Positions 6,586 to 31,247 of a stretch of DNA of 32,000 nt are shown one piece after another. The notes under the pieces were generated by a model that was not told the origin of the DNA, searched no databases, and saw only the letters and a program-made list of their open reading frames with translations. Source of the stretch: Thermoproteus tenax Kra 1 (GTDB lineage: Archaea; Thermoproteota; Thermoprotei; Thermoproteales; Thermoproteaceae); contig NC_016070.1 of the NCBI RefSeq assembly GCF_000253055.1, positions 90,001 through 122,000 on the forward strand, given 5' to 3'. The translations under genes and the position numbers were made by a program. The first letter of the stretch is position 1. Each line of letters begins with the position of its first letter.

Positions 6586-7111
6586 CCAAGTCCTACGCTA
6601 TATGTAAGCCTCGTTGTCCATTTTAAGATGGCGGCTAGCTCGATAGTCTTGCCCACGACGTACTTGGCGACGTTCCCTATCTAGCTTGAGGACTGATGCC
6701 TGCTCGCTTCTATGGAGAATATATGACTCCCTCCCCGCCCTAAAGGGCGAGGTTTGCTGTTTATGCTGGCGTACCGCCGCCGAGGCGCGACGGCGTTGCG
6801 TGGTGCATCTACACGGGCCTGAGCTTAGACAGTAGCTTGTACATTTTTTGGAATCAATCTTTAATGCATTTCTGATCTCAGGAAATTTCGGCGGGCCCCG
6901 ACACTTGCCGGGGGAACCTGAAATAATTTCGGCGAAAGACCGCTTGCAGCTCTAGGGATCCTAAAAAGGCGGCAGTTTTTGTTTCCTTTTGATGGGTCCG
7001 CCCCTTTGGGGTGAAGTAGGTCGTAAGCTTTTTAACTATAGCCAACATATTCTGACGACCCCCTGGAGGGGGCACATGAGCGGCCGCCACCTAGGCGGCT
7101 GCGGCCGCGAT
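6586..7111. other. about 0.5 kb region without a convincing ORF; candidate small RNA(s) or gene remnant
   Basis: Plus-strand T-runs at 6844-6849 and 6976-6980. GC hairpins at 7059-7072 (CCCCC-TGGA-GGGGG) and 7080-7102. The 10-nt direct repeat aatttcggcg occurs at 6884 and 6925. I could recognise no tRNA, RNase P or SRP signature. Confidence 0.25.
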
Positions 7112-7396
7112 CTAGGCGAAGTTCTCGATATACTCTAGCCAGAGCTCTAGGTCTTTTAGGTCGAGAGGCTCGACGTGTTCGCCCGATCGTATCTGTGCTT
7201 GAGTAAACCGTACGTATTCTCCCTCGCGCACGCCCCTCAGCACTATCAGCCTGTGCCCCTCCCCCTCTCCTATGCTTGCTGCCTCCTCTAACGACGGCGT
7301 CGTGAAAACGAGCTCTACATCGTTACCGTGCTCCTTTAAGACATAGCCGGGCGATGCCTCTACGTACCTCTTCAATTTGTCGTAGGTCACTCTCAT
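7112..7396 (-). CDS. hypothetical protein (94 aa)
   Basis: Clean ORF with ATG 7396, about 23 nt from the shared TATA element. I recognise no family. Confidence 0.6.
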   Translation of the reverse strand: MRVTYDKLKRYVEASPGYVLKEHGNDVELVFTTPSLEEAASIGEGEGHRLIVLRGVREGEYVRFTQAQIRSGEHVEPLDLKDLELWLEYIENFA

Positions 7397-20110: not shown

Positions 20111-21250
20111 ATGATCCCCATTTCGGTGATGGTCGCCGGGATTGGAACCACTTCGTTCAAGATAAAGGGTAGATACGGCGTTGAGAGGCCGAGCGGCTTC
20201 GCGGCGCCCCTGAGGCCTGCAGTCACTTGGAACATCACCAAAAGGTGCAATCTCAAGTGTCTCCACTGTTATGTCGACGCAGGTCCCGCCGACTCCAGCG
20301 AGCTGACTACGGAGGAGGCCCTAGACGTAGTAGATCAGATGGCCGAGATAGGAGTGCCGATGGTTATATTCTCGGGCGGCGAGCCTCTGCTGAGGCCCGA
20401 CTTCTTTGACGTCGCGTCCTATGCAGGCAGCAAAGGGATAAAGCTCGTCATCTCGACTAACGGCACTCTAATAAGCAAAGAGGTCGCTAAAAGGCTGAAG
20501 GACCTTGGCTTCTACTACGTGGGCATAAGCCTCGACTCGGTAGACGGAGAGTACCACGACTACTTCAGAGGAGTGAAGGGCGCCTTCTCATCGGCGCTAT
20601 TGGGCATAAAGAACGCCGTGAATGCAGGCCTCGACGTAGGTCTCCGGTTCACAGTTACCGCGAAGAACATAGCCGAGGTTCCCAAATACCTGGAGTTCGC
20701 GGCCTCGTTGGGCGTGAGGAGAGTGACCTTCTACCATCTATCAGCAGCGGGGCGCGCCCAGAGGTTGGACAAGAGCTGGTATTATACCCCCGAGCAGTAT
20801 GTCGCCTTTATACACACGTTAATAGAATACGCGAGGAAATACGCAGGCGAGATAGAGATCGAGACCACGCTGGCTCCCTACGACGGCGTGTATATTGCGC
20901 TCACGTTGGGGAACGGCTCCGAGGAGTACCTCAAGTTCGTTGAGTCAGCGGGAGGCTGTGGAAGGAAGATGATCTCGATATATCCAAACGGCGACGTCTA
21001 TCCTTGCCAGTTCCTCGACTTCTACCGTCTGGGCAACGTGAGAGAGAGGAGGCTCAGAGAGATCTTAAGGCCAGATGCCGTAGAGCCCTTCGTCAACACT
21101 GAGAAGTATCTGAGGGGGCCTCGGTGCAGCGCCTGCGCCTACAAGAGGTACTGCAAGGGCGGCGACAGGGCAAGGGCCTACTACCTGACCGGAGACATGT
21201 GGGGCGACGACCCTCTGTGTCCTCTGCCGTCCATTCTGGCCCGGAACTAG
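20111..21250 (+). CDS. radical SAM protein with C-terminal SPASM domain (AhbC/AhbD/NirJ-like)
   Basis: CNLKCLHC (Cx3Cx2C), a GGEPLL motif, and C-terminal Cys clusters (GGCG...YPCQF...[14 protein letters not shown]...DPLCP). I prefer ATG 20111, about 24 nt after the TATA, over the track start 19814, which overlaps the divergent gene. Confidence 0.85.
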
Positions 21251-22305
21251 GCGGCCCCGTGCGTTGAGACGGCTTGTTGGCCCTTGTTGTGTGATCTGCC
21301 CAAGTCCTCTACGGCGAATTTCAAGGCGGCGGCTGCCCTCTCCACATCCGGTACGCGTATGGCCTCGTCCTCTGTGTGGGCAAGCTTGGGATCGCCGGGC
21401 CCGAAAGCCGCTATGTTTTTCGTCAGCTTGATCAACAGGTTGAAGTCGGCCGTTCCATATTTTTTGCTCAACTTGGGCTCAACGCCTATCTTCAACAGCC
21501 CCCTCACAAGCGCCCTGGCCGCGGGGTTCGTCGGGCTCACTTCGGCTGGGTCTACGCACGTCCTCACCACGGCAGGCAACCCCTCGAGCATCTTGAGTAG
21601 TTCCTCGCACGTGTGGCCCGGCGGAATCCTCACGTCCAGCACGGCTGCGCACTCCACTGGGACCTTGTTGGGGGCGTCGCCGCATCTCACCACAGTGGGC
21701 GTCACAGTGAAGTCGTTGTACCTTTCGCCGTGTCTCAACGTCTCCTTAACCTTCAAGTAGGCGTTGTACAGCTCCTCGAACGGATTCCCATATATTGGGC
21801 TGGAGGCGTGGCCGCCCCTTGTGTTAATCCTGAGCTCCACTTTGCCCCCGCCTCTGTAGGCATATGCTACGTGTAGATCAGTGGGCTCGCCCACGTAGAT
21901 GTAGTCGGGCCGCGGGGGCCCGCCCCTCAGTAGCTCCTCTGTGCCCACGCTGTCGTCTTCCTCAGCTGTGACCAGCGTGAGCACCAGAGTGCCGCTGGGA
22001 TTGGCCGTTCTGAAGGCCTCGAGATATGCCACAAGGGGGCCCTTATCGTCGACGGCCCCCCGCCCCCTCACCACGTCGCCCTCATCTCTCACCTCAAGCG
22101 GCCCAGCGACTGTGTCCATATGTGCGTGAAGCCATATGACCGGCTGGCCCCGCCCCCTCACTGCGATCACGTTGCCGGCCGAGTCTATCCATGCATCATC
22201 GGCGTGGTCTCTGGCGATACCCAACAGGAACTTCGCCAGCTCGCCCTCCCCATGCGAGGGGCTATATATGCTGAGCGCGCGCAACAATAGGCCCTTTAGG
22301 TCCAT
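21247..22305 (-). CDS. lysK: [LysW]-lysine/[LysW]-ornithine hydrolase (M20 family, ArgE/LysK)
   Basis: 352 aa. M20 motifs HAHMDTV and GRGAVDDKG. It sits in a lysW/X/Y/Z cluster. A TATA lies about 25 nt upstream. Confidence 0.85.
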
Positions 22306-22370: not shown

Positions 22371-22380
22371 TTTTTATATA
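22371..22380 (+). promoter_or_regulatory. TATA-like box (tttttatata) of the lysX-like/lysY/lysZ operon
   Basis: Its centre is about 22 nt upstream of ATG 22398. Confidence 0.55.
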
Positions 22381-22397
22381 GGCTCGGTCGGGCCCCT

Positions 22398-22466
22398 ATG
22401 GAATTTGCGGGGAAAGCGGGGCCAGCGGGGCGAAGATATATATCATCTCCGAGAAGCCCGAGCTAG
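22398..22466 (+). promoter_or_regulatory. 22-codon leader ORF (MEFAGKAGPAGRRYISSPRSPS) with three tandem GCGGGG+codon units; candidate -1 frameshift sensor
   Basis: GCGGGGAAA, GCGGGGCCA and GCGGGGCGA at 22407-22433. The leader frame is +1 relative to the downstream enzyme frame, which is open from 22382 but has no ATG, GTG or TTG before 22478. Confidence 0.55.
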
Positions 22467-23083
22467 GGGAGAGGCTTTTGGCCAAGTTTATATCGGCCCG
22501 GGGTCTCTCAGCCGAGATAGTTGGCCTTGAGGGCGGCATCTCCTCGCCGGAGGGGCTCGCCGTAATTAGGACTAGGAACCAGTACTTGGGAGCGACCTAC
22601 GCCGCTGTATTTAGGCGGGCTGTTAACCAGGCCCACGCCATTTATAATGCCTTGAACAGACTCTACTGGTTGCCCAAGTTCGGCCCGCCCTTCATGGCGT
22701 TCGTCGAAGAGGACGCCGTAGAGAAAGTTGAGTTCGGCCCGCCCTGGCTCTTGGCTACTGCGTGGCGCCTCGGGCTTGACAGCGTAGTGACGAGCGTTGA
22801 GGGGGCCAAGAGCGTGGTGGAGCACCGCTCCTACATGAGGAATCCCCTGGCCAAGGCCAGCGTAGTGATGCCCAAGCCCAGGGAGGTCAAAAGGGTCTTC
22901 GCCGTGGCAGGCATGTCCGACGGAATAGTGGACGAACTCTTGAGGGCCACAGGCTTGAGATACGCCGAGGTGGCCCTGGGCGTGTACGAGGACGGCGAGC
23001 GCGTCATAGACGTCGACCCCATCCCCGAGCTCGACGAGGCCCGCGCAAGGCTCTTGGCAGAATTTCTGGCGTCGGAGACATGA
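22398..23083 (+). CDS. short, divergent RimK/LysX/ArgX-like protein (expression appears to need a -1 shift from ATG 22398)
   Basis: The enzyme frame begins ...AKIYIISEKPELGERLLAKFISARGLSAEIV, which resembles a pre-ATP-grasp N-terminus. The C-terminus ...GLRYAEVALGVYEDGERVIDVDPIPEL resembles the end of an ATP-grasp. It occupies the first slot of the lysY-lysZ operon. It is only about 215 aa and lacks an obvious central ATP-grasp domain. Confidence 0.45.
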
Positions 23084-24135
23084 AGGTCTGTATAATAGGC
23101 GCATCGGGGTTCACGGGGGGCGAGCTCCTGAGAATACTTCTCAGCCACAGCGGAGTGGAGGTCGTCTGTGCCACGTCTAGGAAGTTCAAGGGCGAGTACG
23201 TCTACAGAGTGCACCCAAATCTGAGGGGGTTCACAAACCTCAAGTTTGTGGAGCCGAGCATAGACGTAGCCCTTAAGGCCGACGCCGTGTTCTTGGCGCT
23301 TCCTCACGGCGAGTCTGTCAAGTGGGTCCCCCAGCTCTACGAACACGGCCTGTACGTCGTAGATCTCAGCGCAGACTTCAGACTGAAGGACCCTAACGCC
23401 TACGTAGAGTGGTACAGATGGCCTCAGCCCCATCCCTACCCCGATCTGCTTAAGAGGGCCGTCTACGGGTTGCCCGAGTTGCACAGAGAGGAGCTCCCCG
23501 GCGCTAAGTTGATCGCATCGCCGGGCTGCACAGCGACGGCGTCCATCATGGCTCTGGCGCCTCTCGCAAAGGAGGGCCTCATAGACTCCGGCCCCATCGT
23601 CGTCGACGTCAAGATGGGCTCCTCGGGCGCCGGAGCAGAGGGCTCAGTGTTGGACATGCACAGCCACAGGACGTACGTGATAAGGCCCTACGAGCCCGTG
23701 CACCACAGACATACGGCTGAGGTCGAGCAAGAGCTCACTAGGCTGGCCGGCAGAGAGGTAAAAGTTGCCTACACGCCGCACGCAGTGGATGTTGTCAGAG
23801 GCATTCTCTCGACGGGGCACGTCTTTACTGAGAAGGACGTGGAGGAGCCCTCCCTCTGGAAGGCCTATCGATCTCTATACGGAGACAGCAAGTTCGTGAG
23901 AATAGTGAAGGACAAGATAGGGCTTGCGCGCTACCCGAATATAAAGTACATCTTGGGCACTAATATAGTGGACGTCGGCTTCGAGATAGATAGAAGGATG
24001 AGGAGGATAGTGGCGTTCGCAGCCCTAGACAACCTCGTCAGAGGCGCCGGCGGACAGGCAGTGCAAGCCTTCAATATAGCTGTGGGCTTCCCTGAGGACG
24101 AAGGACTTAGATATATACCGCCCCACCCGATATGA
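23080..24135 (+). CDS. lysY: [LysW]-aminoadipyl/glutamyl-phosphate reductase (ArgC family)
   Basis: [18 protein letters not shown] Rossmann start and the catalytic SPGCTATA motif. ATGA overlap with the upstream gene. Confidence 0.9.
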
Positions 24136-24917
24136 TAATAGTAGTCAAGTTGGGCGGCTCTGTAGTCTGCAAGGACCCCTCAAAGGCCATAGCGGACTTA
24201 GCCAAATACGCCGATGTGGCAGTCGTAGTACATGGGGGCGGCTGTATGGTGAACGAGGTGATGAAGGCGATGGGGCTCCAACCCAAGTTTCTCACGCATC
24301 CCGGCGGAGTAGTCAGCAGATTTACCGACTATGAGACATTGAGGGCCTTCGTGATGACCATGATGTGGATAAACAAGAACATAGTGGCCTCTCTGGCATC
24401 GCTCAGAGTGCCCGCGCTAGGTCTCTCAGGCGCCGACAACATGGTGTTGAGGGCTAAGAGGAAGGAGAAAGTGATAATAGTCGACGAGAGGGGCAGACAG
24501 AGGGTCGTCGATGGAGGCTACAGCGGCAAGATCACTGAGATAGACGTCAAAGCGCTTCTGCCGCCGCCGCTCAAAGTGTTGGCGCCGATCGCCGTATCGG
24601 AGAAGGGCGAGCTCCTGAATATAGATGGAGATCAAGTGGCCTTTGAGATAGCCTCGAGGCTCATGAGCAAACTGGTGATATTGAGCGACGTTGACGGTTT
24701 GATCATAGGGGGAAAAGTCGTGGGCAGACTCACGCCCCAGGAGGCCCTCGAGCTGGCCAAGTCGGACGAGGTCAAGGGAGGCATGAAGAGGAAGTTGATC
24801 GCGGCAGCCGAGGCGGCCAAAAGCGGAGTAGAGACCATAATATACAACGGTCTCGTCGAGTCACCCATAGAGAAGGCCCTCGCCGGAGCGGGTACTCATA
24901 TTATACCTAGTTCCTAA
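24132..24917 (+). CDS. lysZ: [LysW]-aminoadipate/glutamate kinase (ArgB family)
   Basis: IVVKLGGSV and VVVHGGG amino-acid-kinase motifs. ATGA overlap with lysY. Confidence 0.9.
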
Positions 24918-24961: not shown

Positions 24962-25147
24962 ATGGCTAAAGTAAAGCTAACGGCAGTATGTAAAGTATGT
25001 GGTAGCGAGATAGAGCTTCCCGAGGACGTGATGGACGGCGAGATCACTTCGTGTCCCACGTGCGGCACACGTTATATTGTCAGACTGAAGGGCGAGAAAG
25101 TCGAGCTGGAGGAGTTCAAGGGGGACGTGGAGGACTACGGAGAATAA
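24962..25147 (+). CDS. lysW: amino-group carrier protein LysW
   Basis: 61 aa. Zinc ribbon CKVCGS...CPTCG and an acidic C-terminal tail ending EDYGE (LysW-type EDWGE). It has its own TATA about 25 nt upstream. Confidence 0.9.
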   Translation: MAKVKLTAVCKVCGSEIELPEDVMDGEITSCPTCGTRYIVRLKGEKVELEEFKGDVEDYGE

Positions 25148-25165: not shown

Positions 25166-25175
25166 ATTTTAATAC
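25166..25175 (+). promoter_or_regulatory. TATA-like box (attttaatac) of argG
   Basis: Its centre is about 23-24 nt upstream of ATG 25194. Confidence 0.55.
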
Positions 25176-25193
25176 GAGCTATTAAGCCCCTCC

Positions 25194-25232
25194 ATGCCCT
25201 CGGGGCGAGAAAGATCAGTAGAATCGCGTTAG
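25194..25232 (+). promoter_or_regulatory. 12-codon leader ORF (MPSGRERSVESR) with UCG GGG CGA; candidate -1 frameshift sensor for arginine
   Basis: ATG 25194 is +1 relative to the argG frame. The G-run 25202-25205 is followed by the Arg codon CGA. 3 of the 12 leader codons are Arg. Confidence 0.55.
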
Positions 25233-26404
25233 CGTATTCGGGCGGTTTGGACACCACTGTTGCGATAAAGTGGCTATCCGAGAAGTATAACGCTGAGGTC
25301 ATAACAGTGACTGTAGATGTGGGCCAGGAGGAGGACTTCCAAGAGGTCGAGTCTAGAGCGTATAAAGCGGGCGCGGCGAAACACTACACTATAGACGCCA
25401 AGAGGGAATTCGCCGAGGAATATATAGCTAGAGCGGTGCTGATGAACGCGATGTACGAGGGGAAATATCCCCTCGGGACAGCCCTCGCGAGGCCTCTGAT
25501 TGTGTCGAAGACCGTCGAGGTAGCAAGGCGCGAGGGGGCAGACGCAATAGCCCATGGGAGCACCAGTAAGGGCAACGACCAAGTGCGTTTCGATGTGACG
25601 GCCAAGGCGTTGGCCCCCGATCTAGAGATCTTGGCGCCAGCCAGAGTGTGGGGCATGGGGAGGGAGCAAGAGATCGACTACGCGAGGAGACACGGCATAC
25701 CTATACCGGAGGCCCACAAGAAGTACAGCATCGACGAAAACTTGTGGACGCGCTCCATTGAGGGAGGGCCTGTCGACGACCAGAGAGCTGAGCCGCCCGA
25801 GGACGCCTTTAAGTGGACTGTACAGCCCGAGAAGGCGCCTGACCAGCCGACATATGTCGAGATAGAGTTCTCCAACGGGCTCCCTAGGTCGATAAACGGA
25901 GAGCGCGTGGACATGCTCCAAGCAGTCAGAGCGTTGAACAACGTGGGAGGTCTGAACGGCGTTGGGCGCATTGACCACATTGAGAGCAGGCTCGTGGGAT
26001 TCAAGAGCCGCGAAGTATACGAGGCGCCGGCGGCGGTGATACTCTACGAGGCCCACCGCGATTTAGAGAAGTTGGTCCTCACGCCGAGGGAGCTACGGTT
26101 TAAACACACTGTGTTGGACCCCCTATGGGCAGATCTAGTGTATCAAGGCCTGTGGGTTGAACCGTTGAGGCAGTCGCTGGAGGCCGCCGCCAGAGAGATG
26201 GAAAGATGGGTGGACGGCTGGGTGAAAGTTAAGCTGTATAGAGGGTCTCTACAGGTGGTCGCCCGCGACTCTAAATACGGAACATACAGCAGAGATATAG
26301 CGGATTACTCCACGGGGTGGTATCCCTCAGACGAGGAAGCGCGCGGCTTCATAGAGATGTGGTCGCTCCACAGCCTCCTGGCATTGAAAAAACGTGGTCA
26401 ATAA
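25194..26404 (+). CDS. argG: argininosuccinate synthase (body in frame from 25202; appears to need a -1 shift from ATG 25194)
   Basis: RIALAYSGGLDTTVAIKWL PP-loop N-terminus, plus the GSTSKGNDQVRF and ENLWTRS(I)EGG motifs. The track start TTG 25247 would delete the AYSGG part of the ATP-binding motif. There is no in-frame ATG, GTG or TTG upstream of it. Confidence 0.9.
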
Positions 26405-26780: not shown

Positions 26781-27323
26781 GTGGAGATTCTGTTGCTCCT
26801 CCACGGTTCCAAGGATCCCAGATATCGCGAATCAGTAGAGAGATTCGCGGGGAGGCTCGGGCTCAAGTACGCGTTCCTCGAGGGCTTTGAGCCGAGACCC
26901 GGCGTATTATATCTCCCCATCTTCGTCGCCCCAGGCGCCGACTACAGAAAAGCTCTGTCGTTGGCAAACCTCAAGGCGCCGCCATTGATTAGATGGCCGG
27001 GCTTCGCCGACTATCTGAGATCGCTTAGGGCAGACGTCTATATATTTCACGGAAGCGACGAGCCTGAGTACATAAACGAGGTCGCCTCATTGGGGCTCAG
27101 ATTCGCTTTCATCGAGGGCGAGCCCTCTCTGAAGTCTGTGGGCTGTAGAGGGCTTGGGGCGCCTGTAGTGTTGACGCGCGGCATTATCTACGACAGAGCC
27201 TCCGAGTTGTGGAGGGAGGCGGGCTGTCGCTACGAGCTTCTGCCGCCACTCTTCGAACAGGAGGGCTTCGTACAGTATTTCTCCTCAGCGCTCAGCTCGT
27301 TGTTGGCCAAGATTCAACAATAG
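26781..27323 (+). CDS. CbiX/SirB-like sirohydrochlorin chelatase (small type)
   Basis: 180 aa. The (V)EILLLLHGSKDP start resembles the CbiX HGS motif, and there is a second IFHGSDEP repeat. GTG start about 22 nt after ctatttttaaaaac. Confidence 0.5.
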   Translation: MEILLLLHGSKDPRYRESVERFAGRLGLKYAFLEGFEPRPGVLYLPIFVAPGADYRKALSLANLKAPPLIRWPGFADYLRSLRADVYIFHGSDEPEYINEVASLGLRFAFIEGEPSLKSVGCRGLGAPVVLTRGIIYDRASELWREAGCRYELLPPLFEQEGFVQYFSSALSSLLAKIQQ

Positions 27324-28284
27324 CGGCGATCTGTCTGCCGACCTCCTCAGTGGTGGCCCGCCCTCCTATGTCCGGCGTAGCTACCCCGCGCCTCAAGGCC
27401 TCCTCAACGGCGCCTCTAACAGCGTTTGCAGCGTCTTGGCGGCCCATCCATTCGAACATCATTGCGGCGGACAATATGGTCGCTATCGGATTGGCTATCC
27501 CCTTTCCAGCTATGTCGAAGGCCGCCCCGTGGATCGGCTCGAACATGGCCTTTTTGTCTCCAATATTCGCCGAGGGCGCCAGCCCCAAGCTACCTGCCAC
27601 TTGTGCGGCGAGATCGGTGAGGATATCCCCGTATTGGTTCGTCGTCAACACAACGTCGAAGCGCGAGGGATTCCTTACAAGCTCCATCGCTGCTGCGTCT
27701 ACGTACATTTCCTCCACTTGAAGCCCATCGAGCTCCCCCCTGGCCACATCCCTAAAGAAGGCGTCGACCACCCTCAACACATTGGACTTTGTGACGATAG
27801 TCACTTTCCGCCTCCTCATTTCGGCGTACCTCCTCGCCACTCTAGCCACCCTCGCCGTGCCCTCCCTCGTTATGACCTTCAGAGCAATCGCCACATCGCC
27901 CACTCTATATTCGGCGCCCACATAGACATCTTCGACGTTCTCCCTCACGAAGACGCAATCGATGGGCTTGACAGCAGGCACGCCGGGGAGGTTCTTTGCA
28001 GGCCTTATGTTGGCGTACAACACGTACTTCATCCTTATCGCGGACGTTACATCGTAGGCGGTCTCGCCCACGGGGCCCTTCAGTACGGCGTCGGCGGAGT
28101 CCACGATCTTCCACGCCTCGTCGGGCATAGGTTTGCCATACTTCCTCGCGGCTACGTCGCCCGCCTCCACGACCTTTATATCGAGCGGTATTGAGAAACG
28201 CCGCGCGGCCGCCTCTATCACCTTCAGCGTGGCCGACACTACCTCGGGCCCTATGCCGTCGCCCGGGATTACGGCAAGCTTCAT
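27292..28284 (-). CDS. homoisocitrate / 3-isopropylmalate dehydrogenase (beta-decarboxylating dehydrogenase family)
   Basis: MKLAVIPGDGIGPEV start, and the NQYGDILTDLAA and EPIHGAAFDIAGKGIANP motifs. ATG 28284 lies about 24 nt after TTTAAAA. The track start 28314 overlaps that TATA. Confidence 0.9.
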   Translation of the reverse strand: MKLAVIPGDGIGPEVVSATLKVIEAAARRFSIPLDIKVVEAGDVAARKYGKPMPDEAWKIVDSADAVLKGPVGETAYDVTSAIRMKYVLYANIRPAKNLPGVPAVKPIDCVFVRENVEDVYVGAEYRVGDVAIALKVITREGTARVARVARRYAEMRRRKVTIVTKSNVLRVVDAFFRDVARGELDGLQVEEMYVDAAAMELVRNPSRFDVVLTTNQYGDILTDLAAQVAGSLGLAPSANIGDKKAMFEPIHGAAFDIAGKGIANPIATILSAAMMFEWMGRQDAANAVRGAVEEALRRGVATPDIGGRATTEEVGRQIAAIVESWPTTS

Positions 28285-28402
28285 AACGCCAGAAAATGTG
28301 TGAGTTTTAAACATAGAGCGCGCCCATCTGGGGACTCGGGGGCCCCAGCCACCTAGCTCGATCGCCTAAGGAGCTCGACAAGCCGATGTTCTATAGAGCC
28401 GC

Positions 28403-29116: not shown

Positions 29117-30534
29117 CTAAGGGGCGGAGGGCGCTTGGAGGGAGCCCAGCTGTTTCAACACTATGTTGGTCAACGTGGATTTAACGCCTCTGACCGACCT
29201 TATATCCTCTATTATTCTGTTCAATTCCTCAGCGTTGGAGGCCACCACTCTTGCGACGATATCGAAATCCCCAGTGACCTCTCCCACGTTGACGACGCCG
29301 CTAATCGTGGACACTCTGCGGGCCACCGAGGTGGTGTATACGTTTTCGTCCACTTTTATCCAGATGAACGCCTCAATATGTTTGTTTACATACGCCTTAT
29401 ATCTCACGCCCGTGACCTTCTCCAAGATCTCCAAGAGGTCCTCGTCTCTAAGCCTCCTCGCGTTCGTGGATTTGAGCTCCTCCACGACTTTGGCCAGAGT
29501 CTCCTCGTCTACCTTCACGCCGAGTCTCTCAAGCCGGTGGGCCACGGCGCGCCTTCCGCTATATTTGTCTAGGGAGAAGTCCCTCGACCTCCCCACGACC
29601 TCGGGCGGAAACGGCTCGTAGGTCTCTGGATTCGCCAGTACACCTGCTTGGTGGACGCCGGCCTTGTGAGTGAACACATTGTCGCCAGTTATGGGGAAGG
29701 TGGGCATCTGGGCGATCCCGCTGGCCGCCTCCACCAGCGAGGCCAAGTAGGGGAGCTTCGCCATATCGATGAGCTTGACGCCCTTGTGGTAGTAGTAGGC
29801 CGCGACGAAGACTTGGAGAGGGGTGATACCTGCTCTCTCCCCGAGGCCGTTCACTGTCGTGTGAACTACGTCGGCTCCGCCCTCGGTCGCAGCCATTGAG
29901 TTGGCCACGGCCATCCCTAAGTCGTTGTGGGCGTGTATATCTAGTCCGACCCCAGGCACGGCCTCCTTCAGCTTCGAGAAGAGTTGGCGCGCTCTATCGG
30001 GAGTGAGTATCCCCACTGTGTCGGCAATGCTCACTCTGTCCGCGCCTGCGTCTCGCGCAGTTTTTACCACTTGTATAAGGTAGTCGAGGTCTGCCCTAGT
30101 GGCGTCTTCGGCTGTGAACCTCACCTTCACGCCGGCGCCTCTCGCGAACTCCACGTGTTCGGCGATTATGGCCAAAGCCTCCTCTCTGGTCTTCCTGTGT
30201 TTGTGCTTCAGATGTATATCGCTGACGCCGTAGAAGATGGCGACTCTGTCGGGCTCAAGCGACGTCGCGTTCTCTATATCTGATTTGACGGATCTGCTGT
30301 GGACGACTATCTCGCTCTTGATTTCGCCGTCTCGCTTCAGAGCTATTATCTTCGAGATAGCCGATCTGACGTCGGGCGCCACGTTTGGGTCGCCCACCTC
30401 TATTAAGTGGACGCCTACATCCGACAGAGACTTCGCTATCTTGATCCTCCATTCCTCAGAGAATATAACGCCCGGAGTCTGCTCGCCCTCTCTCAGCGTC
30501 GAGTCGAGAATTTTTATGCTTTCCCCGAACTCAT
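29117..30534 (-). CDS. homocitrate synthase (LeuA/HCS family) with C-terminal RAM domain; body in frame with GTG 30553, but the likely initiation is ATG 30534 plus a -1 shift
   Basis: LDSTLREGEQTPG and HAHNDLGMAVANS...NGLGERAGI form a DRE-TIM core. The last ~90 aa (EAFIWIKVDENV...GDFDIVARVVASNAEELNRIIEDIRSVRGV) form an Lrp/AsnC-type RAM domain instead of a LeuA dimerisation domain. GTG 30553 abuts the TATA box. Confidence 0.9.
30514..30534 (-). promoter_or_regulatory. 6-codon leader ORF (MSSGKA) with UCG GGG AAA; candidate -1 frameshift sensor for lysine
   Basis: On the minus strand: ATG 30534, TCG 30528-26, GGG 30525-23 (G-run 30526-30523), AAA 30522-20 and TAA 30516-14. The ATG is +1 relative to the HCS frame. 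Confidence 0.55.
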
Positions 30535-30553
30535 GGCGGCTGAACCGACCCAC

Positions 30554-30561
30554 TATATAAA
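30554..30561 (-). promoter_or_regulatory. TATA box (TTTATATA on the minus strand) of the homocitrate synthase gene
   Basis: Its centre is about 23-24 nt upstream of ATG 30534. It directly abuts GTG 30553, so that GTG is unlikely to lie within the transcript. Confidence 0.55.
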
Positions 30562-30596: not shown

Positions 30597-31085
30597 CTAC
30601 TTCGAGCCCCTTATCTTCAGATATTCAGTCAAGCCGCCGGCCTTGAGGATCTCGAGCGCAAGCCCCGACAGCGGCTTGCCCTTTATCACCTCGCCGGTGG
30701 ACAAGTTCACCACCTCGCCTGTCTCAACACGGACGACGACCTCATCGCCGTCTCTGACCCTCCCCCTCGCCGGGGCCTGCAACACTGGCAGTCCCACGTT
30801 GATGGCGTTCCGGAAGAAGATTCTGGCGAACGACTCGGCCACTACGGCCAATACACCGGCCCCCTTCAGTGCCGTGGCCGCTTGCTCGCGGCTGCTCCCC
30901 ATCCCGAAGGCTCTGCCGGCCACTATCACGGCCCCCTTAGCCTTCTTCGGGAACTCGGGATCTAGAGGCTCCATGGCGTGTTGGCCCAGGACGGCCGGGT
31001 CAGTATATACTAGATATCTGGCAGGTATAATTACGTCGGTATCTATCTTGTCGCCGTAGACCAAGGCCCTCCCCCTTATTTCCAT
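30597..31085 (-). CDS. 3-isopropylmalate/homoaconitate dehydratase small subunit (LeuD/HacB family)
   Basis: 162 aa. [29 protein letters not shown] and [13 protein letters not shown] motifs. No large-subunit gene lies next to it in this window. Confidence 0.9.
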
Positions 31086-31157: not shown

Positions 31158-31167
31158 TTTAAATATA
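31158..31167 (+). promoter_or_regulatory. TATA-like box (tttaaatata) of ilvB
   Basis: Its centre is about 22-23 nt upstream of ATG 31185. Confidence 0.55.
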
Positions 31168-31184
31168 GGTTAAATAGTGCCCCT

Positions 31185-31247
31185 ATGGATTCGGGGGTTA
31201 CATCGGGGCTCGAGGGGATCGCCCCAATAGGGTGGTCGACAGAGTAA
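31185..31247 (+). promoter_or_regulatory. 20-codon leader ORF (MDSGVTSGLEGIAPIGWSTE) with three G-run sites followed by Val, Leu and Ile codons; candidate -1 frameshift sensor
   Basis: TCGGGGGTT at 31191-99, TCGGGGCTC at 31203-11 and GAGGGGATC at 31212-20. The leader frame is +1 relative to the ilvB frame, which is open from 31178. Confidence 0.5.

Follow-up and report, generated by a model that had tools for sequence, protein, structure and literature searches.

The head of the lysX-like, lysY, and lysZ operon of Thermoproteus tenax Kra 1 lies in a 32,000-nucleotide (nt) stretch of contig NC_016070.1 (positions 90,001 to 122,000, forward strand; here called the window, in whose numbering positions are given), and it carries a triple 9-nt repeat directly behind an ATG at 22398 that is out of frame with the enzyme. 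We put at roughly 70% the probability that this repeat forms the active element of a programmed −1 frameshift switch, one that probably senses amino-acid supply. Across the Thermoproteaceae, at least five amino-acid operons appear to stand under such “frameshift attenuators” on leaderless mRNAs, which would read the supply of charged tRNA directly; this wider proposal is also favored, with a shade less assurance.

Positions 22398 to 22466 read ATG GAA TTT GCG GGG AAA GCG GGG CCA GCG GGG CGA AGA TAT ... TAG, and in the frame of the ATG (frame 0) they translate as MEFAGKAGPAGRRYISSPRSPS followed by the stop. A preliminary description of this DNA had reported three tandem 9-nt units in phase with the ATG, each with a run of four G, and an enzyme frame at −1 that is open from 22382. 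Both points hold: the units can be read directly, and Tandem Repeats Finder agrees (9-nt period, 2.8 copies, 22407 to 22431). A search for GGGG-N5-GGGG-N5-GGGG finds a single copy in the window and none in 100 dinucleotide-preserving shuffles. Relative to ATG 22398, the enzyme frame is offset by 2, that is, −1, and it opens directly 3′ of a TAG at 22379 to 22381 that is itself part of the TATA region; no ATG, GTG, or TTG occurs in it between 22382 and a TTG at 22478. Because the enzyme frame is closed by TAG 22379 and has no usable start before this nonconserved TTG, the sequence indicates that a change of frame is needed for the lysX-like enzyme to be made.

For comparison, DNA from 19 genome loci and 25 metagenome loci (numbered with the prefix L) was picked by patterns in the protein core, and the choice was therefore blind to the leader. 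The 42 loci with the 5′ end present were scored and represent 21 lineages at less than 93% nucleotide identity. All 42 have a TATA box 16 to 21 nt 5′ of an ATG, with the enzyme at −1, and none has the enzyme in frame. The ATG is invariant, although the enzyme-frame residues that it overlaps differ among loci (Y or H, then G or E); the codon that follows the ATG varies mostly synonymously or conservatively in frame 0 (GAA, GAC, or GAT). The open reading frame (ORF) of frame 0 has 22 codons in Thermoproteus and, in most cases, 25 in Pyrobaculum. Overlapping frame-0 and −1 ORFs, with a product that needs the shift, are conserved among the relatives.

The units themselves are conserved in identity and not in order, being AAA-CCA-CGA (K-P-R) in Thermoproteus and CCA-AAA-CGA (P-K-R) in Pyrobaculum. 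GGGG-AAA is found in 18 of the 21 lineages (absent from L007 and L016; it does not align in L001), GGGG-CCA is found in every lineage but L010 (GGGA-CCA), and GGGGCGA is invariant except in L016/L043 and in L038, the latter with CCA. The repeat and its Lys, Pro, and Arg codons, which the preliminary description had taken to be meaningful, are thus shared by both genera despite the permuted order. Its further suggestion of a second Arg codon was half right: AGA is present at 22434 to 22436, but relatives have GAG, GGA, GGG, GCG, or TTT at this position, and the trailing AGA is not part of the device.

Other starts for the enzyme fared poorly. TTG 22478 as the sole start, which the preliminary description had named as an outcome that would count against the repeat, is not upheld; relatives have CTT CTC, CTA CTC, and similar codons there, and a start at this point would remove strand 1 and part of helix 1 of the predicted fold. 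The upstream in-frame starts picked by gene callers read through or abut the TATA box.

Three irregular loci were seen during this comparison. Pyrobaculum oguniense TE7 has a second lysX-like copy (L018, 2820 to 3000) with a decayed leader, ATG AAC GAG GGG CCA GAG GTG GAA ATG ..., and this copy is probably a pseudogene because of an N-terminal stop in the enzyme frame and a truncated product (P0028, 148 amino acids [aa]). The lysX-like gene of L044 is interrupted by a deletion of 1 nt (170 to 180) that is probably an assembly error. In L038, at about 1510, the third unit is GGGG-CCA instead of GGGG-CGA.

Conservation of the leader extends to bases that the enzyme sequence would leave free. Invariant third positions of the enzyme frame number 12 of 13 in the Thermoproteus leader versus 12 of 100 downstream, and 8 of 11 in the Pyrobaculum leader versus 5 of 100 downstream, although the downstream third-position figure is perhaps somewhat inflated by insertions and deletions beyond about 100 nt; within the first 120 nt, 5 of 40 (Thermoproteus) and 1 of 40 (Pyrobaculum) are invariant. 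Stretches of the same length farther downstream are all less conserved than the leader. The enzyme-frame codons within the units are nonpreferred (GGG, 21% of Gly codons; GAA, 16% of Glu codons). On the comparative evidence, selection is acting on the nucleotides of the leader.

A structured RNA does not account for these constraints. RNAalifold on 21 leaders returned just a 4-bp pairing (−2.9 kcal/mol), the single-sequence fold of the window leader was no better than shuffles (z = +0.56), Rfam gave no match for the leaders, and a scan for terminator-like elements found nothing 3′ of the ATG; a conserved structure or riboswitch was rejected with these searches empty. An RNA G-quadruplex was also rejected, because four G runs are not common to all leaders: Pyrobaculum has a fourth run 5′ of the ATG, Thermoproteus has three runs, and the argG, homocitrate synthase, and thrC leaders described below have one or two. 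The fourth tract is a run of 5 or 6 G between the TATA box and the ATG (GTGGGGGGT ATG), present in most Pyrobaculum lysX-like leaders and not in Thermoproteus, and it lies 2 to 9 nt 5′ of the ATG (for example, L011, 3001 to 3010). It could serve in the choice of transcription start or as a fourth G tract; both are possibilities.

Of special interest is the recurrence of the same arrangement on other amino-acid genes. It was first spotted in the spacer between lysW and argG, and a scan for ATG ... NNG GGG XXX followed by a long −1 ORF, with the sequences then read, brought out further cases. The preliminary description had proposed amino-acid sensing for the lysX-like leader, and this idea is backed by the same cassette, with its own end-product codons, before argG, the homocitrate synthase gene, ilvB, and thrC. 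The phase of NNG GGG is kept in almost all units of all leaders, the one lapse being the first lysX-like unit of L010 (CTG GGA).

The first possible start in the argG enzyme frame is TTG 25247, the codon for the L of the SGGLDT motif, and the NCBIfam argG alignment begins at the slip site. NCG GGG CGA precedes argG in every locus in which the 5′ end of argG was recovered. In Pyrobaculum and Thermoproteus uzoniensis the ATG of argG falls within the final codons of lysW (GAC T ATG GCG AGT AAA TCG GGG CGA). With argG directly following, the last lysW Tyr codon is TAT in 10 of 10 distinct sequences and thereby supplies this ATG; with a separate promoter for argG, it is TAC in 6 of 6 sequences. Readthrough of the lysW stop into argG was considered and rejected: it requires that the two genes abut, and in other Thermoproteus loci stops intervene and argG has a promoter to itself.

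For homocitrate synthase, the listed ORF start (GTG 30553) stands directly 3′ of the TATA box, and ATG CGT TCG GGG AAA precedes the gene in T. uzoniensis and L047. The ilvB leader, which belongs to the acetolactate synthase large subunit, reads ATG GAT TCG GGG GTT (Val) ACA TCG GGG CTC (Leu) GAG GGG ATC (Ile) in the window; the three sensor codons are GTC, CTC, and ATC in T. uzoniensis and L047 and GTA, CTT, and ATT in Pyrobaculum L050. An ilvB-like leader, ATG ACT ACG GGG CTT, was also seen in L052 (1 to 120) behind a C-terminal motif of a thiamine pyrophosphate enzyme. That locus looks rearranged and was left out of the analysis; a rearrangement or a paralog is possible. The thrC gene leads a thrC-ask-asd-hom operon, which in Pyrobaculum is divergent from the lysX-like gene, and its leaders carry GGG ATT (Ile) and then GGG ACA (Thr) in Pyrobaculum islandicum and L009, GGG ACA in L007 and L022, and GGG ACG (Thr) in L016/L049.

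The identities of the four additional enzymes are secure by NCBIfam models: argininosuccinate synthase (NF001770) scored 544.7 against a cutoff of 334, homocitrate synthase (TIGR02146) 516 against 413.6, threonine synthase (TIGR00260) 275.6 against 167, and acetolactate synthase (TIGR00118) 574.8 against 538 for the near-full-length L047 copy, with 291 bits on the ilvB fragment in the window. Ordinary starts were found for the aconitase small-subunit gene of the window and, in P. islandicum, for argH and the chorismate-binding gene, and the device is therefore not on every biosynthetic gene. The aconitase small-subunit-like gene (30597 to 31085, minus strand) begins with an in-frame ATG GAA ATA AGG GGG AGG (31085 to 31050); a −1 slip at this in-phase G run and Arg codon would abort the protein, and the resemblance may be chance.

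In 5 of 5 families, the codon after GGG specifies an end product of the pathway: K, P, and R for lysX-like, R for argG, K for homocitrate synthase, V, L, and I for ilvB, and T with or without I for thrC. From amino-acid frequencies, such a match would arise by chance with a probability of about 5e-7 if the lysX-like leader is left out and about 5e-10 if it is included, a post hoc estimate in which the assignment leaves no freedom for argG, homocitrate synthase, thrC, and ilvB. The sensor codons vary only synonymously at the third base (GTT/GTC/GTA, CTC/CTT, ATC/ATT, and ACA/ACG), and the −1-frame residue changes with these variants (Y, R, Q, or I after the Val unit). Since the amino acid is kept in the ATG frame while the −1 residue changes, selection reads the sensor codons in the ATG frame.

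Codon rarity was rejected as a whole explanation. CGA and CCA are rare, CGA being the rarest or second-rarest codon overall, but those of the ilvB leader are common: no Leu codon is used more often than CTC (rank 52 of 61), and GTC ranks 54 of 61, so rarity is not the shared property. As a control, sites with TATA-N16-22-ATG adjoining a long ORF were collected from 133 kb. The ORF was in frame 0 at 12 sites, at −1 at 18, and at +1 at 1, and all 18 of the −1 ORFs belong to the five gene families. Hits of the scanner that lack a TATA box lie inside genes and have unrelated codons.

The spacing of promoter and ATG bears on how these messages begin. A TATA-to-start distance of 17 to 21 nt is also found at four other ORFs started by ATG or GTG (three in the window and one in L007); strict TATA matches were too few for the first spacing histograms to be informative. 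Archaeal promoter boxes lie about 26 nt from leaderless starts according to GeneMarkS-2, and Pyrobaculum is where leaderless mRNAs were first described (PMC6028130). Because the TATA spacing fits leaderless archaeal genes, we infer a leaderless start, with transcription probably beginning at ATG 22398.

These elements suggest the following mechanism. The leaderless operon mRNA would be translated from its 5′-terminal ATG, and among the first 11 codons the ribosome would meet three NNG GGG XXX units. Once GGG occupied the P site, Lys-tRNA (AAA), Pro-tRNA (CCA), or Arg-tRNA (CGA) would be awaited in the A site, and during the wait the peptidyl-tRNA-Gly could re-pair perfectly one base back on G GGG. 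After the slip the ribosome would read the −1 frame, which is that of the LysX/ArgX-like ligase, and lysY and lysZ would follow through their ATGA overlaps by translational coupling. If the sensor codons were decoded promptly, the ribosome would instead stay in frame 0 and stop at TAG 22464; across leaders, unslipped ribosomes would terminate 2 to 17 codons on. Scarcity of an end product would then yield more enzyme, with OR logic over the units, three units offering three chances to shift. All of the sites fall in codons 3 to 11, where a short nascent chain and a short 5′ mRNA may favor slippage. The slip, its efficiency, the response to starvation, and the propagation along the operon are all parts of a model drawn from the sequence. 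Slippage of a single tRNA in the P site next to a vacant A site, under limitation for aminoacyl-tRNA, is established and needs no stimulatory structure (PMC8211752; PMC5009743). Re-pairing in the P site only is what the sites allow, as the A-site codons CCA, CGA, CTC, GTT, ATC, and ACA cannot re-pair at −1.

Several observations weigh against an amino-acid-sensing frameshift. The whole case is built from sequence and comparison. The sites lack the canonical X XXY YYZ heptamer, and no conserved downstream structure accompanies them. Some lineages have lost units: L016/L049 keep the Pro unit only, L007 is without Lys, and L038 has CCA for CGA. In the lysX-like leader AAA, CCA, and CGA are each the least used or nearly so among their synonyms, so that for this leader taken by itself a response to slow codons fits as well. 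In Pyrobaculum, initiation of argG at the ATG inside lysW is assumed, with a GGAGG only 3 nt upstream. Finally, the T. tenax route from ornithine to proline is only proposed. The genome paper found no glutamate 5-kinase, reported ornithine cyclodeaminase homologs, and suggested that proline is made from ornithine (PMC3189178); from these gene contents proline may depend on the LysW pathway, and the link between the two, which would explain the Pro codon, is plausible.

A constitutive −1 shift at G GGG would accommodate the required and conserved change of frame equally well. It would set a fixed low expression, with the following codons acting as kinetic pauses or being accidents, and the lysX-like and argG codons are indeed the rarest for their amino acids. 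The ilvB leaders, however, use the common codons CTC and GTC, and the amino acid matches the pathway in five families and survives both synonymous change and permutation, with a chance of 5e-7 or less for the match; we consider a constitutive shift unlikely. An arrangement with no shift at all has a counterpart in mycobacteria, where short leaderless ORFs sense amino acids without shifting (bioRxiv 10.1101/834739). In such a scheme the leader peptide would be independent, and the enzyme would start at a noncanonical codon in its own frame, modulated by stalling at the sensor codons. L009, L010, and P. islandicum do have an upstream in-frame GTG or ATG. These starts, however, follow the TATA box by 1 to 12 nt, most lineages lack them, and in the window, L001, and L011 to L013 a stop shuts the enzyme frame at this place; from the ATG to strand 1, no near-cognate start has been conserved. 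The scheme also leaves unexplained the in-phase NNG GGG and the constant −1 offset (18 sites versus 1 at +1), and it strikes us as improbable.

Correction at the RNA level would require RNA polymerase to slip on G4 and add one G, which would bring the ATG into frame with the enzyme. The sites at which RNA polymerase is known to slip are A or T tracts of some 7 or more bases. A tract of four G is very short, the nucleotide after it varies (A, C, or G), and the pathway-matching and synonymously varying codon that comes next is left unexplained. A single nucleotide inserted anywhere from the ATG to the enzyme would indeed bring the two into frame, and transcriptional slippage does serve gene expression elsewhere (PMC5009743), yet we give this explanation very little credence. 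The possibility that the frame break is an artefact or a sign of decay, through homopolymer errors, pseudogenes, or phase-variable G tracts, is effectively refuted. G runs are error-prone in some sequencing chemistries, and both the unrelated downstream deletion in L044 and the decayed second copy in P. oguniense illustrate such events. About 45 assemblies from many projects share the −1 arrangement and none is in frame, among them the finished genomes of T. uzoniensis, P. islandicum, P. oguniense, and Pyrobaculum sp. WP30; because the arrangement is universal, miscalls of the G runs, which the preliminary description had itself raised as a concern, are excluded along with pseudogenes and phase variation. 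The arrangement also recurs in five gene families essential for amino-acid synthesis, and the leader is the most conserved stretch of the lysX-like gene.

The enzyme behind the lysX-like leader is itself unusual. Its protein had no match to Pfam or NCBIfam, even at E 0.1 (Pfam RimK and ATP-grasp and NCBIfam LysX models), and a profile search against the PDB gave only E 1.3 to 5k2m. An AlphaFold2 model from 22 sequences (predicted local distance difference test score, 94; predicted template modeling [TM] score, 0.90) has IYIIS, residues 2 to 6, as strand 1, encoded from 22436. With Foldseek the best match in the PDB was ArgX of Sulfolobus tokodaii (3vpb; E 4e-15, TMq 0.84), followed by LysX/ArgX of Thermococcus kodakarensis (5k2m) and LysX of Thermus thermophilus (3vpd). 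At about 216 aa, against about 280 aa for LysX, the protein is some 60 residues shorter (TMt 0.66). Its predicted fold matches a compact LysX/ArgX-like ligase, and the gene context includes lysW, lysY, lysZ, and lysK. The name “lysX-like” given in the preliminary description is right, because fold and gene context match LysX/ArgX, even though sequence models miss the protein; the ATGA overlaps that it reported between lysX-like and lysY and between lysY and lysZ were confirmed by reading.

Apart from one distant homolog in Vulcanisaeta (24% identity), which adjoins a canonical LysX (L019, 813 to 2544), the homologs found for this protein are all from Thermoproteus and Pyrobaculum. The Vulcanisaeta gene starts in the ordinary way, at an in-frame GTG, and lacks G-run units; this outgroup without the device was counted in favor of the frameshift. 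Canonical LysX was not found by tblastn in the window or in the flanks of the Thermoproteus and Pyrobaculum loci. Among the named top database hits, none is from Thermoproteus or Pyrobaculum, which is suggestive only, as few hits carry names. The annotated lysX-like homologs range from 148 to 248 aa with widely scattered N termini, and the long ones read through the TATA box.

The features are collected in Table 1. The C-terminal Lrp/AsnC (RAM-type) domain of homocitrate synthase suggests allosteric control besides the leader. Elsewhere in the window, positions 7058 to 7113 (minus strand) match the Rfam family Pyrobaculum asRNA3 (RF02793) with 71 bits against a gathering score of 46.

Table 1. 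Features of the frameshift leaders and their surroundings (window positions unless a locus is named)
Feature	Position	Strand	Remarks
TATA box of lysX-like operon	22373..22380	+	TTTATATA; AAG-TTTTTATA when counted from the AAG resembling a B recognition element (BRE)
ATG, putative leaderless start, frame 0	22398..22400	+	Invariant in all loci; 19 nt after TATA box
Unit 1, GCG GGG AAA	22407..22415	+	Slip run G GGG 22409-22412; Lys sensor codon AAA 22413-22415
Unit 2, GCG GGG CCA	22416..22424	+	Slip run 22418-22421; Pro sensor codon CCA 22422-22424
Unit 3, GCG GGG CGA	22425..22433	+	Slip run 22427-22430; Arg sensor codon CGA 22431-22433
TAG stop of 22-codon frame-0 ORF	22464..22466	+	End point for nonslipping ribosomes
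LysX/ArgX-like ATP-grasp ORF, compact and divergent	22409..23083	+	−1 frame; structured part from KIYIIS, 22433
lysK-like M20 hydrolase	21247-22305	−	Divergent to lysX-like gene
lysY/argC	23080-24135	+	ATGA overlap with lysX-like gene at 23080-23083
lysZ/argB	24132-24917	+	ATGA overlap with lysY at 24132-24135
lysW	24962-25147	+	
lysW 3′ end, Tyr codon region	25134-25147	+	Compared with L007-L017 and L045
argG leader	25167..25232	+	TATA TTTTAATA 25167-25174, 19 nt, ATG 25194 CCC TCG GGG CGA (Arg) ... TAG 25230-25232
argG, −1 frame	25202-26404	+	
Homoisocitrate dehydrogenase	27292-28314	−	
Homocitrate synthase	29117-30553	−	C-terminal Lrp/AsnC ligand-binding domain
Homocitrate synthase leader	30514..30561	−	TATA 30561-30554, 19 nt, ATG 30534-30532 AGT TCG GGG AAA (Lys) GCA TAA 30516-30514
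Homocitrate synthase ORF, −1 frame	30526 down to 29117	−	
ilvB leader (acetolactate synthase large subunit)	31158..31247	+	TATA 31158-31165, 19 nt, ATG 31185, TAA 31245-31247
ilvB start	From about 31190	+	Runs beyond window end
ilvB enzyme, −1 frame	From 31193	+	Past window end
thrC leaders	L046 about 9840, L048 about 9790, L049 9806	−	Also L009 and L022; GGGG-ACA or GGGG-ACG

In Escherichia coli, the attenuation leaders use Thr plus Ile codons for thr and Val, Leu, and Ile codons for ilv. The archaeal leaders resemble such bacterial leaders (trpL, thrL, ilvL/ivbL, hisL, and pheL) in being short 5′ ORFs with end-product codons, in which the speed of the ribosome reads charged tRNA. They differ in output, since the bacterial leaders act on transcription through a terminator and antiterminator, whereas here the likely output is a change of reading frame and no alternative RNA structure was found. 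They also have one sensor codon per amino acid rather than runs, and the leader ORF overlaps the enzyme ORF. If the model holds, they would do at translation what attenuation does at transcription.

The elementary mechanism proposed is that of “hungry codon” shifting (Gallant and Lindsley), also without a stimulatory structure (PMC8211752; PMC5009743). Hungry-codon cases come mainly from starved E. coli and from engineered or incidental sites, whereas the sites described here are conserved and appear to be required for essential enzymes; the 2016 review by Atkins calls the natural role of such shifting unclear (PMC5009743). In prfB (release factor 2; +1) and antizyme (+1), shift efficiency likewise reports the availability of a product through slow decoding in the A site, but those are +1 shifts at a stop codon that sense release factor or polyamines in single genes, in contrast to a multi-operon set with interchangeable codons. 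The fucA1 gene of Saccharolobus solfataricus is, like the lysX-like gene, a cellular archaeal gene that needs a −1 shift, and it was the sole reported archaeal −1 frameshift according to a 2021 review (PMC8211752). Its heptamer, A AAA AAT, lies far inside the coding sequence, a putative stem-loop follows it, and no metabolite is linked to it, in contrast to G GGG within the first 11 codons. The polycysteine leaderless short ORFs of mycobacteria also stand at the head of an operon and sense the cognate amino acid; they are bacterial, involve no frameshift, and precede a gene with its own start (bioRxiv 10.1101/834739). Neither the 2021 review of archaeal recoding (PMC8211752) nor the 2016 Atkins review (PMC5009743) mentions Pyrobaculum or Thermoproteus, and no description of such leaders was found in the literature searched, which did not cover all journals. 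Frameshifting, hungry codons, and leader peptides are each known; as far as we found, their combination as a programmed amino-acid sensor across several operons is new.

Two consequences concern the genes themselves. A compact LysX/ArgX-like ligase that family models miss has been uncovered, and LysX-like, ArgG, homocitrate synthase, IlvB, and ThrC would be mis-started or truncated in Thermoproteus and Pyrobaculum annotations. The cassette may also be portable for synthetic biology, as a swap of one codon should change the amino acid that is sensed.

If the frameshift attenuators operate as proposed, they would constitute a new cis-regulatory class and the first multi-operon programmed-frameshift gene set in any cellular organism. 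The count of cellular archaeal genes with a −1 frameshift would rise from one to many, and in hungry-codon shifting nature would have a control system shaped by selection. For the sensing of charged tRNA, bacteria have attenuation and T-boxes; to our knowledge no comparable cis-acting sensor of charged tRNA has been described in archaea. The leaders of Thermoproteus and Pyrobaculum would fill this gap with a very simple device that needs no RNA structure and would suit leaderless mRNAs at 85 to 100 °C.

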